62,272 nt of DNA from Patescibacteria group bacterium (GCA_044376225.1 JBILLF010000006.1:1-62272), one strand, 5' to 3'. Positions 50,859 through 56,811 are shown, counted from the stretch's first letter. Program-made: numbers and translations. Notes: generated by a model from the sequence alone, not told the origin.

Positions 50859-51060
50859 CGTCATCCCCGCGAAAGCGGGGATCCATCTTCGTCGCCCGCG
50901 AATCGACATTCCCGCGAGGTCCTTCGTCGCCTTCGGCTCTTCAGGATGACGCACCGCGCTTTGTTTTTTGGGGAAGTTGTTCAAGGCGACGTGGCGGGCG
51001 TCATCCTGAGGCCCGAAGGGCCGAAGGACCTCACCGGGATGACGGAATTCTCGCCCCTAC
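50859..51060. repeat. Cluster of REP-like elements
   Basis: CGTCATCCCCGCGAAAGCGGGGATCCA (50859-50885); inverted pair CGTCATCCTGA..CGAAGGACCTC (50916-50951 minus, 50999-51032 plus); GTAGGGGCGA remnant at 51051-51060 minus. Confidence 0.8.
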
Positions 51061-51416
51061 CTCATCCCAAACACCCGAAACCGATTTCTCGACACCCATC
51101 GGTAGGCGGCGCGGCGCAAGGGTGGGGGAATGAGGCGGATGAAAAGTGCGAACAGGTTGTGGATACCGCCGAGGCGTGCAAAGAGGTAGATGATTGCGCT
51201 GTCCTCGATGAGAAGCTCGCCGCTGTGGGTGATCACGTAGACCGTGTCGGGTGGACCCGTGATGCCATGGCGCGCAAGCAGTGCGGCACCTTCGTCTGAC
51301 TGGAAGGAGAGGTAGTGGAACTGTCGCTTGGTGTCGAAGCGATGCAGGTATCTCACAACGACATCGCAAAGGTTGCAGACGCCGTCGAAGATGACTGAGA
51401 TCGGGGTGGTGTGCAC
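51057..51416 (-). CDS. DCC1-like thiol-disulfide oxidoreductase (DUF393)
   Basis: FDGVCNLC, QSDEG, YRWVSRNRFRVFG. Confidence 0.88.
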   Translation of the reverse strand: MHTTPISVIFDGVCNLCDVVVRYLHRFDTKRQFHYLSFQSDEGAALLARHGITGPPDTVYVITHSGELLIEDSAIIYLFARLGGIHNLFALFIRLIPPPLRRAAYRWVSRNRFRVFGMR

Positions 51417-51419
51417 GGC

Positions 51420-52487
51420 CTAGGCCTGACGCGTCAGATGGGCAACGTAGAATCCATCCCCGCCATCGTCGCCGGGTAGTGTTTGCCACTGACGATCAAG
51501 TCGGAAGGGGGCTCCTGCTTCACTGGCAAGGAAGGTGGCCATTTGTTGAGCCCCTTCTTCGGGAAGAATGCTACAGACGGCGTACACCACACGTCCGCCA
51601 ACTTTGGCAACGTTAGCTGCGCGGCGCAGCAGCAGCTGCTGGATGGAGAGCAGCTCGGCAAAGCCATCTTCAGTGCGGTGGTAGAGAATGTCGGGGTTGC
51701 GGCGGACCACGCCCGTTCCTGTGCAGGGGGCATCAATGAAGACGCCATCGGACGTATCGAAAAGCCGTTTGATGATCTTGGTGGTCGTAGCTAGGCGCGC
51801 TTCGATGATGTCTGCACCGGCGCGGGTAGAGCGCTGACGCAGGGCCTGGAGCTTCGCCGCAACCACATCGACGGCGATGATACGCCCCCTGTTCATCATT
51901 GAAGCCGCAAACAGCAGAGACTTGCCGCCGGAGCCTGCACAGGCATCAACGATGCGCTCGCCGCTTGCGGCATGCATCTCGAGTCCTGCCCGCACAGACG
52001 TAACGTCCTGCTGTTCAAACCAGCCCGCCGCAAAGGCCTCCGTTGTGAAGAGACCGAAGGGACGGTCGATGCGCAGCACGAGCTCGGACACCACCTGCGG
52101 TTTGTGTTGGAGCAGGGCCGCACGGCAGGCATCGGTGGTCGTGCGCAGAGTATTAACACGCACAAAGACCGGCGCGTCGGACAGCATGCGAGCGATAACC
52201 GCTGTGCTCTGGTCGGTGTAGGCGTTGTCGATCAGTGTGCGCAGCCACTGCGGTAATGCGGCACGGGAAGGATCTATAACGCCGTCGAGCTCTCCGCCAA
52301 GGGCAGATTCGACATCGTCATAGCGGATGGCCTGGAAGATCGTTCGGCGCAGTTCAGAGGCAAGTTCCTCCGAAGGCTGCACCTCACGGAAAAGACGCTC
52401 AATGCTGGACGAGAGGTGGCGGCCCTGAGCGAGCGTGTCATAGACACAGTCGCGCACGGCACCGTGGAGTTCGGCGGGTAATGGCAT
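51420..52487 (-). CDS. RsmB/NOL1/NOP2 RNA m5C methyltransferase
   Basis: VRVNTL, FEQQD, DACAGSGGKS, DAPCTGTG..RRNPD, YAVCS, DGFY. Confidence 0.9.
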   Translation of the reverse strand: MPLPAELHGAVRDCVYDTLAQGRHLSSSIERLFREVQPSEELASELRRTIFQAIRYDDVESALGGELDGVIDPSRAALPQWLRTLIDNAYTDQSTAVIARMLSDAPVFVRVNTLRTTTDACRAALLQHKPQVVSELVLRIDRPFGLFTTEAFAAGWFEQQDVTSVRAGLEMHAASGERIVDACAGSGGKSLLFAASMMNRGRIIAVDVVAAKLQALRQRSTRAGADIIEARLATTTKIIKRLFDTSDGVFIDAPCTGTGVVRRNPDILYHRTEDGFAELLSIQQLLLRRAANVAKVGGRVVYAVCSILPEEGAQQMATFLASEAGAPFRLDRQWQTLPGDDGGDGFYVAHLTRQA

Positions 52488-52491
52488 GATG

Positions 52492-52968
52492 TCAGGTAGT
52501 GATCGTCAGGATGCCCGTCTGCGTATCGAAGGTTGCCGTGTACCGCTGAAGATTAGTTGCGCTTCCGGAAGTCGGCTGGCGCAGAACTGTTCCGTCTTTG
52601 CGGGAAAACTCTGCGCGGTGGCATGCGCATATGCAGTTCGACTGGGCATCGGCGGGAAGATCGATCGCGCATCCCTGATGTGAGCAGACCGATGTGAACA
52701 CAGCAAACGTTGCCTGGTCAATGCGCGAGATGAAGACCGGCTCATCGCCGTTCAGTCCACTGACGGCTTGCAAAGTGATACCGCCCACGGCTGAGAGATC
52801 CGGGATCTTGGTGACGTCCACGGAATAGGTCTTGCCCGGCGGAGTAGTCGGATTTGTTTCATCCTGCTCGCAGCCGCTAACGATCTGGGCAATGGCTGTG
52901 GCCGAAAGTGCCAGACCTACCGAGGCCGTGGCGCGAAAAAGGAAATCCCGACGAGATTGTGCTGACAT
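52492..52968 (-). CDS. Tat-exported Rieske [2Fe-2S] lipoprotein
   Basis: SRRDFL twin-arginine, VSGC lipobox, CSHQGC and CACH ligand boxes; start set at ATG 52968. Confidence 0.88.
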   Translation of the reverse strand: MSAQSRRDFLFRATASVGLALSATAIAQIVSGCEQDETNPTTPPGKTYSVDVTKIPDLSAVGGITLQAVSGLNGDEPVFISRIDQATFAVFTSVCSHQGCAIDLPADAQSNCICACHRAEFSRKDGTVLRQPTSGSATNLQRYTATFDTQTGILTITT

Positions 52969-52991
52969 GGCAAGGGGCTCCACAGATTGTT

Positions 52992-53288
52992 TCACGACGA
53001 CTTCCGCTGGCGAACCACACCGAAGGTGATGAGAGTTCCGCACATACCCAGCACGAAGGCATAGCATCGTGGAAGATCGCTCACGGTGGCGTTCAGCGGT
53101 AGCAATCCGAATTTGAAGGCGGGGACGAATTCCGTCGTACGTGTGACCGTGCCGAAGAGTTCATCCTTGACCTCTTTCACGACCGCCTCGCGGTCTTTCG
53201 AGAAGATCTGACGTCCGTCCTGGAGCCAAAGATAGCCCCCTGCCAGAATGCCGATGATGCCGAGGATGATCAGAAGCCGGTTTACCAT
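52992..53288 (-). CDS. Small two-TM hypothetical protein
   Basis: Hydrophobic N- and C-terminal segments; tightly packed in the operon. Confidence 0.7.
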   Translation of the reverse strand: MVNRLLIILGIIGILAGGYLWLQDGRQIFSKDREAVVKEVKDELFGTVTRTTEFVPAFKFGLLPLNATVSDLPRCYAFVLGMCGTLITFGVVRQRKSS

Positions 53289-53309
53289 GACGTGTCCGTG
53301 CAGTGGTGG

Positions 53310-54494
53310 TCAGTAGAAGATGTGCAGCTGGAAGTTCCACCGTGACGAGTATCCTTCCTTCCACGTGTCAAGAATGCGATACTCGGGCCGGAGCTCAACA
53401 TACGGCAGCAGGAATATCTGTGCACCGATGATGGCTGCGTCGGTAAGAACCGTCCCGGCGGCATTTACCTGATCCGTCCAATACCGTTCGGCACGAATGT
53501 ACGGGAAGACCCATGTGGCCGCCTGATACATCAGTTCAGCCGTCCAGTTCTCGGTCTCGATGATGTTGTTGAGCTTCATGGACGTGCGGTCCAGAAGCAG
53601 CGACAGGTGGTCGCTCAATCCCACGCCGGCAAAGGCGCTTGTGAGGGTCAATGCATTGTTGCTCAGCACCGAGCCGCCCAGCCACATGTTGAGTTTATCG
53701 TTAATGGCTCTCGGCCAGACCACGGCCCGTGCAGTAATGGTGGGCTGATTGCCGGTTATAGCTGAAACACTCTGCGTCCCGCCGTCATTGATGCGCACCT
53801 GGGAAAGACCCTCGGAGCCGAACAAACCGGTCTGTAGAGTCAGCCAGCGAAGGCCTTCGTAGGTGATCTCCGCTCCGTACTCCGACCAGTCCGGAGCCAC
53901 TAGTGTTTGACGTGAGGTAGACGTGGCATAGCCGTAGGAGCCCATGGTATGGTCGTCGTAGCGCATTCCGATGGATGGGCGAAACAGCCCCACACGAAGC
54001 ACGGGTAAACTCAGTGAGGGGGCGATGATAGCCGAAAGCGAGCCCATCCGCTGACCCGGGTACACGATGCGGGGTCCGCCGCTAGCCCCCTGCCTGAGGG
54101 CCGCAAGGTTGAACGTACCCTCCAGCGTGACGGCCTTGATCGGCGTCAGTGCGGCGTAGAGCGAGGCCTGCATCGGGAACGTTGAGCGTGTGGCCTGTGG
54201 ACTCGTGAATGAGCGCGTACTCTGCACGCGGGCGTCCATGCCCAACGTCAGCATGCCGTCAAAGAACGTGTTCTCTTTGTCGATGGCATACATCGGAGCA
54301 AGGAACGACGAATCGCGGCTGATGAGTCCGACGTCGTACCAGCTGTACCATCCCAGATCGTTGCGGACTCCACCGCCCGACGGTGCCACATGGCAGTTGG
54401 AGCAGCGGTTGCCAGAGATGGCCGAAAACTGAGGGATCGCCATGGCCGTAACCGAGGCGATCCCTGCAAGGAGTATCGTAATGAGCGCCATCAT
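53310..54494 (-). CDS. Cyc2-like monoheme cytochrome c fused to a beta-barrel porin
   Basis: Signal peptide, then AIPQFSAISGNRCSNCH; amphipathic beta-strand body; C-terminal NFQLHIFY beta-signal. Confidence 0.65.
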   Translation of the reverse strand: MMALITILLAGIASVTAMAIPQFSAISGNRCSNCHVAPSGGGVRNDLGWYSWYDVGLISRDSSFLAPMYAIDKENTFFDGMLTLGMDARVQSTRSFTSPQATRSTFPMQASLYAALTPIKAVTLEGTFNLAALRQGASGGPRIVYPGQRMGSLSAIIAPSLSLPVLRVGLFRPSIGMRYDDHTMGSYGYATSTSRQTLVAPDWSEYGAEITYEGLRWLTLQTGLFGSEGLSQVRINDGGTQSVSAITGNQPTITARAVVWPRAINDKLNMWLGGSVLSNNALTLTSAFAGVGLSDHLSLLLDRTSMKLNNIIETENWTAELMYQAATWVFPYIRAERYWTDQVNAAGTVLTDAAIIGAQIFLLPYVELRPEYRILDTWKEGYSSRWNFQLHIFY

Positions 54495-54507
54495 GCGCCA
54501 ATGAACC

Positions 54508-55524
54508 TTACTTCAGCTTAAAGGTTGCAAGACACTTTTCGAAGATCGGCAGATAGACTGCCTGTTCGGGCTTGAACCAGTTCATCGTCACGCGCACCAT
54601 ACGGTCACCCTTGACCATGAAGTACGCCCGCGACTGGATGTTGGCAGCCGGATTGTACGTGAAGTACATTGCCTTGACGCCCGAAAGTGACGTTGCCGTG
54701 GCATTTCCGCCGCCGTAACGGCTCTTATTCTGCTCAATGATCTTGTCGAGGTTCTTCTGCTCCTTGGCATCGAACACGTCGATCTGGATCGTACAGTCAA
54801 GACGCGAGCCCGCAAAGCTCATCGAGGATAGACCCGAGGATTGGCCCTTGGTGCCCTGGAAGTTTTGCGGGATTTGGATCGTGAAGTCCGGCGCATTGTA
54901 GTTGCGGAGGGTATCGGAAGGGGGCTCCGGAGCTGCCGGACCCTGCGGAGTCACTGGTGCAGCCACTGGACGCACCGGAAGCTTCACCGATGCGAGGATC
55001 TCCTGGAAATCCTTCTCGTAATCGGAGAAGGTATTGCCAAAGGCAGCAAACGTAACGATCGTTACCAGTGAGTCGTTTTCGGCAAAGTACGCCTCAGAGC
55101 GAAACTCGCCGTCTTCTTGATCGAACTTCACGCTGAGCTTTTGTCCTGGCTTGCCCCCAAGCGTTGTCTGTGTTCGCTCGTAGCGGTCGAGGTTGTCCTC
55201 GAACTCGAGCTTTGAGCGCTTGACGAGCGAGTCGATGGTAGTCGTCGAGTCCATCGGGATGACGCGCATCTCTACCTTAGCTCCGCCTTTGCCTTTGCCG
55301 AACGACAGAAAGCGCGAACTGTGGGCCTTTGTGGACACGGCAAGGATAAGGTCACCACGGCGCTGCTGGATGAACCAGTTCTTCGGGACCTTCATTTCGA
55401 ACTTGCGGGCCTCGTCCTTGCGAAGCTCAAGACCTTCCACTGGCACCGGCGTGGCTTTGCGTGAACATCCGGCAAGAGTCATGACCAAGGCCACGGTGAT
55501 TGCGAAAGTGCGAGGTGTGAACAT
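54508..55524 (-). CDS. Lipoprotein with two PsbP/Mog1-like domains
   Basis: LAGC lipobox; FEMKVPKNW / FTIQIPQNF and TLGG.P / SLSGVKA..F..IL.S/TFK duplicated pattern, Pro-rich linker. Confidence 0.6.
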   Translation of the reverse strand: MFTPRTFAITVALVMTLAGCSRKATPVPVEGLELRKDEARKFEMKVPKNWFIQQRRGDLILAVSTKAHSSRFLSFGKGKGGAKVEMRVIPMDSTTTIDSLVKRSKLEFEDNLDRYERTQTTLGGKPGQKLSVKFDQEDGEFRSEAYFAENDSLVTIVTFAAFGNTFSDYEKDFQEILASVKLPVRPVAAPVTPQGPAAPEPPSDTLRNYNAPDFTIQIPQNFQGTKGQSSGLSSMSFAGSRLDCTIQIDVFDAKEQKNLDKIIEQNKSRYGGGNATATSLSGVKAMYFTYNPAANIQSRAYFMVKGDRMVRVTMNWFKPEQAVYLPIFEKCLATFKLK

Positions 55525-55557
55525 GATACGCGTCTCCATGATTAAGAATCTTTGTGC

Positions 55558-55584
55558 TGGATCCCCGCCTTCGCGGGGATGACG
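55558..55584 (-). repeat. REP-like element CGTCATCCCCGCGAAGGCGGGGATCCA
   Basis: Near-identical to the 50859 and 5346 copies. Confidence 0.82.
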
Positions 55585-55588
55585 TTGA

Positions 55589-55993
55589 TCAGTTGTTGAG
55601 TGCCCCTTCCAGGACCCACTGTGCCATGCCACGTTTGTGGTTGGCATTGATGCGATCCTGGATCAGACCCCACGGGTGGGCGAACACGCCGTTGAGGACC
55701 TGAATCACAAGGCTTTCATCGGGCTTTCCGGGAACGATCAAGTTGGCGCGGTCAAACATCAACGTCGAATATGACGTCAGGCGGATGCGTCCGGCCGGGT
55801 TAACATCTGCATGGCAGCCACCCACGCCACAACTCACGGCTAGGAAAGGCTGGACGTGGGCACGGAAGGATACGTTCGTGTCAGGGAACACAACGTCTGC
55901 AGGCTGCGTCACCATGTTGTCTCCGCAGCCTGTTGCCATTAGTGTACAGGCCGCCGCAACTAGGGCGATCACAAGCATCGGCAGGGGGCCCAT
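55589..55993 (-). CDS. Cytochrome c-like lipoprotein (Planctomycete cytochrome C type, CX4CH)
   Basis: ATGC lipobox; SFRAHVQPFL..SCGVGGCH..G..L..Y..IVPGKPDES..WV.EGA.NN; ATG overlaps the panB stop. Confidence 0.7.
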   Translation of the reverse strand: MGPLPMLVIALVAAACTLMATGCGDNMVTQPADVVFPDTNVSFRAHVQPFLAVSCGVGGCHADVNPAGRIRLTSYSTLMFDRANLIVPGKPDESLVIQVLNGVFAHPWGLIQDRINANHKRGMAQWVLEGALNN

Positions 55994-56811
55994 CAGTAGC
56001 TCTCCTCCGAGGTTGGGAATGCTCGCCCCTTTACGTCGGTAACATATGAACGGACCGCGTCGGTGATCACCGTGTGGAGTTCGGCATAGCGGCGCACGAA
56101 GCGTGGACGGAACTCTGTGGACATTCCCACCATGTCCGTCCAGACCAGGATCTGTCCGTCGCAATCGGGGCCGGCGCCGATCCCAATCGTCGGAACATCA
56201 ACAAGTGCTGTCACTTCGGCGGCCAGCGCCGAGGGGACCTTCTCGAGTACGATGGCAAAAGCGCCCGCCTGCTGCAGCGCCACGGCATCGCGCTTGATGG
56301 CATCGGCTTCGGCCGGGTCGAGGCCTCGCTCCTTGTATGAACCGAACTGATGGATGCTCTGCGGCGTTAGGCCAAGGTGTGCCATCACGGGAATACCATT
56401 CTCCGTCATTAGGCGCACAGCATCCATGATCCGCTGGCCCCCTTCAAGTTTTACAGCTCCGCTGCCGGCTTCTTTCATCAGACGTCCGGCGTTACGGAAG
56501 GCCTCCTGCGGGGTGACCTGATACGTCATGAACGGCATGTCTGTTACCACCAGGGCATGTTCGACAGCGCGAACCACGGCCTGCGTGTGGTAGATCATGT
56601 GTTCGAGCGTCACCGGAATGGTGGTGTCGTGACCCTGCACAACGTTACCCACTGAGTCGCCAACGAGCAGTACATCCACACCGGCACCGTCAAGGATGCC
56701 GGCCGAGATCGCATCGTACGCCGTCAGGCACGCAATAGGCGTGCCGGCGGCCTTCATGTCGATCAGGCGCCGCGTGGTAACGCGTTTACGGGTGGTGGGT
56801 GTTACGGACAT
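55993..56811 (-). CDS. panB: 3-methyl-2-oxobutanoate hydroxymethyltransferase
   Basis: LTAYDA, LLVGDS, DMPF, VKLEGG, HLGLTPQ, IGIGAG..CDGQILV. Confidence 0.97.

Follow-up and report, generated by a model that had tools for sequence, protein, structure and literature searches.

What is the role of the five tightly packed minus-strand genes at 52492-55993 of the window, as we call the whole 62,272-nucleotide stretch of DNA analysed here, deposited as Patescibacteria group bacterium (GCA_044376225.1)? Our preferred answer, to which we assign a probability of roughly one half, is that they encode an electron-transfer module of the cell envelope, the outer-membrane part of which is a monohaem cytochrome-porin belonging to a deep sister clade of the Fe(II) oxidase Cyc2. 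In the order of the minus strand, the putative products are a 134-aa c-type cytochrome lipoprotein with signal peptide, lipobox and the sequence SCGVGGCH, a CX4CH motif (cytLipo; 55589-55993); a lipoprotein with two PsbP/Mog1p-fold domains (PsbP2; 54508-55539); a 394-aa fused monohaem cytochrome-porin with an N-terminal CXXCH (the barrel; 53310-54494); a 98-aa protein with two hydrophobic transmembrane helices (TM2; 52992-53288); and a 158-aa Rieske-type [2Fe-2S] lipoprotein with a twin-arginine translocation (Tat) signal (52492-52968). These are the five packed genes downstream of panB that the original prediction had named, and gene by gene they are all present and correctly described. The module lies on contig C41 of a 2.43 Mb freshwater genome of Kapabacteria type that is 99.5% complete, and the records of its close relatives carry the names Candidatus Kapabacteria, Kapaibacterium or Ignavibacteria.

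The identity of the barrel is central to this answer. Cyc2 has been defined by a signal peptide, one CXXCH with the motif AxPxFAR[Q/K][T/Y] upstream and PxL 4 residues downstream, and a 16-strand OprO/OprP-like porin in a protein of at least 365 aa (Keffer et al., 2021; PMC8406198). The N-terminal part of the barrel contains AIPQFSAISGNRCSNCH; a hydrophobic N-terminus, MMALITILLAGIASVTAMA, read by eye as a signal peptide, precedes AIPQF and the motif C31-S-N-C34-H35, so that the signal peptide and the single N-terminal CXXCH of Cyc2 are both there. Across an alignment of 19 diverse members, P21, N29, C31, C34, H35, G40, R44, P107-M108-Q109 and D180-D181-H182 are invariant. The C-terminus is an aromatic residue (QLHxFY), and outer-membrane barrels typically end in one. 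The AlphaFold2 (AF2) model (predicted local distance difference test, pLDDT, 73.8; predicted template-modelling score, pTM, 0.75) contains about 16-18 strands by DSSP, with low confidence in residues 14-51, the haem segment, which was modelled with the cofactor absent. Foldseek matches the model to OmpU, OmpF, OprP (2o4v) and OprO (4rjw) with a probability of 1.00 and template-modelling (TM) scores of 0.5-0.66; the predicted fold and the length of 394 aa agree with the porin of about 16 strands and at least 365 aa in the definition. Annotation offers little: no Pfam or NCBIfam model matched the barrel, and among 8000 candidates scored, the 157 proteins that match it at E<=1e-3 are, wherever a name is given, called 'hypothetical protein'. 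The same name recurs in the protein Atlas, where the clusters found are labelled 'hypothetical protein' apart from one with Porin_O_P in 12% of its members, and in all the member names of 10 distant cluster representatives. Altogether, homologues at E<=1e-3 comprise 896 representatives of 50%-identity clusters, of which 141 reach E<=1e-30.

For a direct comparison, a Cyc2 reference set was gathered by a back-translated motif scan of genome contigs, which returned at least 121 stretches, and 45 complete open reading frames (ORFs) were aligned. Among the matches listed are records of Mariprofundus, other Zetaproteobacteria, Sideroxydans, Gallionellaceae, Acidithiobacillus and Chlorobiaceae, and likewise of Ralstonia, Nitrospira and Marinilabilia. 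Using hhalign, the profile of the Kapabacteria barrels aligns with that of the 45 canonical Cyc2 sequences over 334 columns at a probability of 97.7% (E 2.3e-12); split into its halves, the barrel part reaches 92.2% (E 6e-7) and the N-terminal part 96.0% (E 4e-9), and column-reversed controls give 0.2-0.3%. Between the two stands a bridge clade, 15 more distant homologues of Ignavibacteria type from other families of the same class, with the pattern ALPRFA..G..C..CH and in some cases FASR; it aligns with the Kapabacteria profile at 100% (E 1.5e-46) and with canonical Cyc2 at 99.4% (E 2e-21; reversed control 0.6%). The spacing between AxPxF and CXXCH in the barrel is also that of Cyc2, 3 residues before the first Cys (79 motif-bearing ORFs). 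As there is profile homology, yet FAR[Q/K][T/Y] and PxL are missing, the barrel appears to be a divergent sister clade in the Cyc2 superfamily, outside Cyc2 as currently defined. This homology rests on profile-profile comparison because plain searches with hidden Markov models (HMMs) fail both ways, the clade HMM scoring at best 17.0 bits against Cyc2. The original call of a Cyc2-like barrel is borne out by the architecture and, at the level of profiles, by remote homology.

The second protein to consider is the Rieske lipoprotein, which combines a twin-arginine signal, a lipobox Cys and the cluster motifs CSHQGC...CACH, and matches the Pfam Rieske family (PF00355) with 31.5 bits against a cut-off of 20.3 (E 1.6e-7). 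In 28 of 28 aligned orthologues R6, R7, C33 (the lipobox Cys), C95, H97, C114 and H117 are invariant; both ligand boxes, C-x-H in box I and C-x-x-H in box II, are present on a Rieske fold with all four cluster ligands, and C100, a disulfide Cys, is conserved to 90% or more. At four loci (L035, L100, L101, L105) both disulfide cysteines are swapped together (CTHAGA...CPRH; CTHSGN...CPFH) with the four ligands kept, a paired replacement such as one would expect in a true Rieske fold whose potential has been tuned. Among solved structures, the best matches are Rieske proteins of b6f complexes (PetC; E 3.7e-6). We ruled out that the protein is itself a bc1/b6f subunit, as no cytochrome b adjoins it and the genome holds another Rieske/cytochrome b pair: a gene scan of the window found no cytochrome b in the module locus, and the sole cytochrome b-like ORF of the genome, on contig C76, adjoins a different Rieske gene. 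NCBIfam models score 27-31 bits against equivalog cut-offs of 97-275. Against its own profile the module Rieske scores 224.9 bits and paralogues at most 51, among them a second small Rieske ORF on contig C15 (C15:32733-33197, minus strand; 154 aa, 51 bits), which has a hydrophobic N-terminus and a lipobox-like Cys and no adjacent barrel.

On which side of the outer membrane would this protein sit? Its mature N-terminus (52860-52872) reads E-Q-D-E-T after the lipobox Cys, and the family pattern C-E-x-D-E-[S/T] is acidic. Tat signal and lipobox could be recovered in 57 of 68 orthologues; counted on those 57, 52 have E at +2, 48 have at least two acidic residues at +2 to +6, and 35 have D/E at both +4 and +5. 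Of 58 crude lipoprotein candidates taken from the whole genome for comparison, 18 have at least two acidic residues, and in 7 D/E occupies +4 and +5. The lipoprotein export signal of Bacteroidota has been given as C-X-K-(D/E)2-X, SDDDD or SDDFE (Lauber et al., 2016; PMC5080379), which the Rieske N-terminus resembles, so the protein might be surface-exposed. Of the periplasmic Tat-exported Rieske lipoprotein originally proposed as the partner of the barrel, the Tat signal, lipobox and cluster are thus all seen, and the linkage to the barrel stands (below); the periplasmic placement does not fare as well, given a mature N-terminus of the surface-export kind.

The third candidate redox protein, cytLipo, scores 20.5 bits with the Pfam family PSCyt1 (PF07635), just under the cut-off of 22; across its family, 24 of 29 aligned members match PSCyt1 at E<=0.01 (best 9.1e-10), and P49, C55, C60, H61 and W126 are invariant in the alignment (A5). 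By these similarities it appears to belong to the PSCyt1-type cytochrome c family. The haem motif of 55 orthologues is CX4CH in 37, CX2CH in 17 and CX3CH in 1, all at one aligned site, an interchange in keeping with the earlier description of a CX4CH cytochrome c-like lipoprotein. Where the window's kind of locus (layout A, described below) has CX4CH and a conserved His in an AHPWG region, members of layout B and of Ignavibacteria type show CX2CH, and a QMP methionine takes that position; the difference may reflect a switch of the distal haem ligand, hence of the potential. The AF2 model of PsbP2 (pLDDT 85.9) has two repeated alpha/beta halves, and Foldseek returns PsbP (1v2b, 2vu4) and CyanoP (2xb3) with a probability of 1.00 and TM scores to the target of 0.58-0.68, and Mog1 too; it has the PsbP/Mog1p fold by fold likeness alone, with no Pfam PsbP match and a weak one to DcrB (E 4.4e-4). 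TM2 matches no Pfam or NCBIfam family; it has a conserved loop of about 50 residues (W..DG..I.SKDRE.VV..V.DELFGT...GLLP), and its orthologue alignment contains no conserved Cys or His.

Do these genes belong together beyond the window? Of 41 related genomes 38 contain the barrel family, as do 34 of the 36 that are of high quality, and 49 genomes match it in a sample of 301 from the phylum, 48 of them in the window's class and one elsewhere. Neighbours were counted by tblastn on the same strand and within 3.5 kb at 79 species-level loci taken from genome contigs. TM2 directly follows the barrel at 75 of the 79 loci, the Rieske gene lies downstream at 70, and cytLipo lies upstream at 55; panB precedes the module at 45 loci, PsbP2 is found at 45 and RsmB, following Rieske, at 43, both of the latter all in layout A. 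YceI stands between TM2 and Rieske at 28 loci, in layout B, and BigIg, a large immunoglobulin (Ig)-repeat protein of the type IX secretion system (T9SS), comes directly after Rieske at 13. Where at least 2 kb of downstream sequence is available the Rieske gene is present at 66 of 69 loci, and six of the nine loci with no Rieske match have less than 1.7 kb downstream. Two layouts emerge. In the window's family (A) the order is panB > cytLipo > PsbP2 > barrel > TM2 > Rieske > rsmB, and in other families (B) it is (cytLipo) > barrel > TM2 > YceI > Rieske (> BigIg); PsbP2 is limited to the family with layout A, with YceI instead in other families. With the barrel in 38 of 41 genomes and its neighbours recurring across 79 loci, the arrangement of the module genes is not due to chance, and the co-conservation in relatives on which the original prediction had staked its case is found.

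Absence tells a similar story. Five complete genomes of one family of the order, f2, have no barrel, and their best matches to the module Rieske profile score 49-54 bits, the level of paralogues (225 for the copy in the window, 51 for the paralogue on C15); barrel and module Rieske have been lost together in this family. We also considered a dependence of the module on aerobic respiration, which does not discriminate, as COX1 is found in all five of these genomes without the module. At 16 more distant loci of the class, the Rieske gene is adjacent in one (L241) and cytLipo-type genes in four. Because of this difference, the pairing of barrel and cytochrome is the older one, and that with Rieske and TM2 is a feature of the Kapabacteria-type order.

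The two additional genes of layout B also occur together by themselves. In the window's own genome YceI > BigIg are kept side by side on another contig (C142:67201-70569, minus strand), as they are at L015:8601-11102 and L023:9193-11991. The BigIg protein of C142 has 815 aa, a signal peptide, an N-terminal 'choice-of-anchor V' domain (NF041895) and Ig repeats. It carries a C-Xn-C-H motif, CGGCH in this genome and CTCH or CGGAGCH in relatives, where a T9SS sorting domain is present as well; BigIg could be a surface redox partner.

Elsewhere in the genome, contig C30 encodes CcmF (with its CcmF_C domain), CcmE and a CcmC-like protein together; System I Ccm genes are therefore at hand, while a genome search found no ResB of System II, and the genes for cytochrome c maturation that the original prediction presupposed are in place. 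The genome further contains four Rieske-domain ORFs, a single haem-copper oxidase and two YceI proteins. Among ORFs of 80 aa and longer just six bear more than one CXXCH, the highest number being five, and no Mtr-like multihaem conduit is evident among them; given so few such ORFs, no conduit of Mtr type competes for the role.

The module is embedded in a longer minus-strand run: panB > cytLipo > PsbP2 > barrel > TM2 > Rieske > RsmB/F-type methyltransferase > DCC1-like. Upstream and outside the module lies panB (3-methyl-2-oxobutanoate hydroxymethyltransferase; 55993-56811; Pfam Pantoate_transf E 2.9e-113, and NCBIfam panB). Downstream, 4 nt past the Rieske stop, is the gene for the RsmB/F-type rRNA methyltransferase (51420-52487; Pfam Methyltr_RsmB-F E 5.4e-34), followed by that for a DCC1-like thiol-disulfide oxidoreductase (51057-51416; Pfam DCC1-like E 1.7e-21), recognizable as the DxxCxxC protein that had been noted two genes on; the latter is syntenic within the genus and unlinked to the barrel in other families. 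Reading the DNA, which also refined the starts, the panB stop and the cytLipo ATG share one base as TGATG (55991-55995), an overlap that couples the translation of cytLipo, which leads the redox genes, to that of a pantothenate biosynthesis gene. The spacing between cytLipo and PsbP2 is 49 nt, those after PsbP2 are 13, 21, 23, 4 and 3 nt as far as the DCC1-like gene, and overall the range is -1 to 49 nt. A scan of the window found no terminator-like site on the minus strand; its counts of sigma-70 promoters and terminators were at or below the shuffle means, Bacteroidota promoters lying outside its scope. At one locus of the same genus (L046:3286-3996), a 236-aa lipoprotein gene that is absent from the window lies between PsbP2 and barrel, and at two others (L026, L028) there is a gap of about 770 nt at that place. 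The public labels of six loci (L048, L052, L056, L060, L063, L067) are Patescibacteria, Didemnitutus, Hyphomicrobiales and Chitinophaga pinensis, probably those of mislabelled bins. Short contigs from RNA libraries (three freshwater/metagenome runs of two studies), 95-99% identical, cover parts of rsmB, barrel, PsbP2, cytLipo and panB and bridge the PsbP2/barrel (54319-54609) and cytLipo/PsbP2 (55427-55678) junctions; Rieske and most of TM2 are uncovered, which says nothing on their expression.

How might such a module work? On the strength of the homology with Cyc2, a small soluble reductant, most likely Fe2+, would enter the pore and be oxidised at the N-terminal haem inside the barrel, from where the electron would pass to the Rieske [2Fe-2S] lipoprotein and/or cytLipo, and onward to the aerobic chain with its one haem-copper oxidase and separate Rieske/cytochrome b complex. 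The invariant Met108 of FPMQ is a candidate for the distal haem ligand, TM2 may be a cofactor-less membrane tether or assembly factor, and PsbP2, represented by YceI in other families, may be a swappable accessory. By analogy, electrons would probably be taken from Fe(II) or a similar small reductant, both direction and substrate being carried over from Cyc2. Haem and cluster loading, physical contact, electron direction, substrate and physiological role of the module are points that we infer. As genomic inference, however qualified, the electron-transfer reading with which this analysis began finds support in the co-conservation, in the presence of Ccm genes and, weakly, in a predicted complex. 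For the latter, residues 19-394 of the barrel and 34-158 of Rieske were modelled with separate alignments and with haem and 2Fe-2S included; the score was 0.35 (runs 0.39, 0.35 and 0.00) versus 0.01 for the best of 3 controls, the runs sharing at least 6% of contacts with a partner pLDDT of at least 79. Among 80 solved complexes, 58 reach the mark applied to such scores, as against 2 of 110 mismatched pairs; just 7 of the 80, and both of the mismatches that pass, do so at 0.60 or under. The interaction that had been anticipated between barrel and Rieske is in this way lent weak support by modelling. A bolder version of the proposal, in which Rieske and haem-porin form a direct and obligate redox partnership, with Rieske perhaps on the cell surface and the haem linking this extracellular Rieske to a periplasmic cytochrome c, we regard as doubtful.

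Several observations weigh against the proposed inward-directed module. Of the AxPxFAR[Q/K][T/Y] motif just AxPxF and its spacing are kept, the window reading AIPQFSAIS and the family AIPQFSLLT; PxL is absent after the haem site, the sequence there being CH-VAPSGGGVRNDLGWYS in the window and CHVxxxGGGLRNxLGWYS in the family consensus; and a plain HMM of the 45 canonical Cyc2 gave Kapabacteria proteins at most 19.6 bits, the window protein being unreported. What is known of the whole barrel clade comes from sequences and predicted models. Three loci (L082, L108, L112) have room downstream and yet no Rieske gene, and the acidic N-terminus resembling an export signal leaves the compartment of Rieske uncertain. 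The complex prediction is weak, with one of three runs at 0.00 and no interface given. The RNA libraries may include DNA, and contigs are unable to demonstrate one common transcript; in a tight run with panB and rsmB co-transcription alone would be no proof of shared function. Finally, nearly all members of the order carry the module, although its metagenome-assembled genomes (MAGs) from freshwater and groundwater are mostly those of aerobic heterotrophs, and this is what one would sooner expect of a housekeeping role than of lithotrophic iron oxidation.

Which other explanations have to be weighed? One is that electrons flow outward, from the menaquinol pool or periplasmic carriers through Rieske and cytLipo to the porin haem and an extracellular acceptor, for which Fe(III) chelates, humics or the choice-of-anchor V/T9SS surface haem protein are candidates. 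Rieske proteins are best known as quinol-side acceptors, the role that they play in bc1 and b6f complexes. The layout-B loci point the same way, as YceI, with its polyisoprenoid/quinone-binding fold, is inserted between TM2 and Rieske in 28 of 79 and the T9SS-sorted Ig-repeat protein with its N-terminal CXnCH comes next in 13, and the pair YceI > BigIg is retained on C142. A quinol-oxidising membrane subunit is, however, not encoded in the module, TM2 lacking any conserved His or Cys; multihaem cytochromes are few in the organism, which possesses an oxidase; and characterised Cyc2 proteins move electrons inward (Keffer et al., 2021; PMC8406198). All in all we consider outward flow unlikely.

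The other is a housekeeping function that does not conserve energy, be it iron handling, by limiting Fenton chemistry or through redox-coupled uptake, or the sensing and poising of the envelope redox state. The occurrence of the porin in 38 of 41 genomes of the order, small ones of 2-2.5 Mb included, is what such a function would lead one to expect, and so is the company of panB, rsmB and coaBC with the translational overlap at panB. Moreover, Cyc2 is also found in Burkholderia, Ralstonia and Xanthomonas, which are not known to be iron oxidisers, and Ralstonia, Nitrospira and Marinilabilia are among the motif-scan matches listed. The Cyc2 sequences of Burkholderia, Ralstonia and Xanthomonas, termed highly sampled genera, were dropped from the set of an earlier analysis (Keffer et al., 2021; PMC8406198). 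Yet the loci examined show no regulator, transporter or TonB-dependent receptor linked to the module, a chain of three cofactors would be elaborate for detoxification, and family f2 is aerobic and does without the module; these points make the housekeeping alternative improbable to us, to a degree similar to outward flow. That the genes are mere neighbours with no shared function, and the CXXCH of the porin a disulfide or metal site in place of a haem site, could appeal to a compact genome with short intergenic gaps throughout and to the low confidence of porin residues 14-51 when modelled without cofactor, but is very improbable, because the linkage persists in two genomic contexts across families and barrel and module Rieske are both missing in f2, and in view of C-x-x-C-H being invariant in 19 of 19 sequences and aligned with the Cyc2 haem site, and of the Ccm genes being present.

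The preferred reading, an envelope electron-transfer module that takes up electrons, places the locus in the Cyc2 superfamily with what appears to be a new conserved partner set of Rieske and two-helix proteins, its function being putative. In keeping with the expectation of an undescribed module, no description of it was found in the full-text papers searched, subscription journals and supplements lying outside the coverage of the search, and no paper in the same full texts joined Kapabacteria with Rieske. In the passages retrieved, the one paper listed that names Kapabacteria along with Cyc2 treats the latter just in Chlorobi, and a preprint listed for Cyc2 together with Rieske is on Tenderiales; passages of a 2026 review (PMC13741234) and of a similarity-network study (PMC10654088) mention Rieske solely in bc-type complexes; and that of a FeGenie survey (PMC8478452) reports iron-oxidation genes in Ignavibacteriales MAGs, with no further detail. 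Cyc2 is the main marker gene for inferring microbial Fe(II) oxidation from genomes and metagenomes. Surveys that use a plain Cyc2 HMM or the published motif filter would probably miss the clade described here, since the HMM is blind to it and the clade does not pass the motif filter. If active, the clade would broaden the taxonomic and mechanistic range of outer-membrane electron transfer, in an order that is widespread in freshwater, groundwater and wastewater, and its partner would be a Rieske iron-sulfur lipoprotein, as against the cytochrome c or cupredoxin of known systems. Should Rieske be the direct partner, this would be a kind of iron-sulfur partner not previously described for such a conduit, and an abundant, supposedly purely heterotrophic freshwater lineage would turn out to have a cryptic capacity for electron exchange with iron or other extracellular redox species. 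With one haem, one [2Fe-2S] cluster and one small cytochrome, the module is also a small, testable system for the hand-off of electrons by a single-haem porin.

How does the module compare with known systems? Its Rieske protein shares with those of b6f and bc1, with the small subunit of arsenite oxidase and with sulredoxin the Rieske fold, the pattern CxHxGC...CxCH with its disulfide cysteines, and the twin-arginine signal. In contrast to bc1/b6f, it is a lipoprotein with an invariant lipobox Cys and not anchored by a transmembrane helix, it does not stand beside a cytochrome b, and it lies far under every NCBIfam equivalog cut-off; a molybdopterin partner is absent too. With MtrCAB, MtoAB and PioAB(C) the module would have in common the purpose, electron transfer across the outer membrane via a beta-barrel with dedicated periplasmic carriers. 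Among these carriers PioC is an iron-sulfur protein too, a high-potential iron-sulfur protein (PMC10654088), whereas the module's iron-sulfur partner is a Rieske [2Fe-2S] protein; and where Mtr-type conduits build a 26-strand barrel around a separate decahaem protein (PMC8406198), the module would have one haem fused to a porin of about 16-18 strands. Closest are the Cyc2 proteins of Acidithiobacillus ferrooxidans and Mariprofundus ferrooxydans (Cyc2PV-1) and Cyt572 of Leptospirillum, with which the barrel shares the signal peptide, the single N-terminal CXXCH, a porin of similar size whose fold matches OprP and OprO (2o4v, 4rjw), templates also cited for Cyc2 (PMC8406198), the AxPxF spacing, and profile-profile homology across both halves. 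It departs from them in having S[AL][IL][ST]GN[RK] before and GGGLRNxLGWY after the haem site in place of FAR[Q/K][T/Y] and PxL, and in its hosts, Kapabacteria-type MAGs that are not known iron oxidisers. Its partners differ as well: where Cyc2 of Acidithiobacillus is accompanied by Cyc1 and rusticyanin (PMC10654088), the barrel has a Tat-exported Rieske lipoprotein and a protein with two transmembrane helices.

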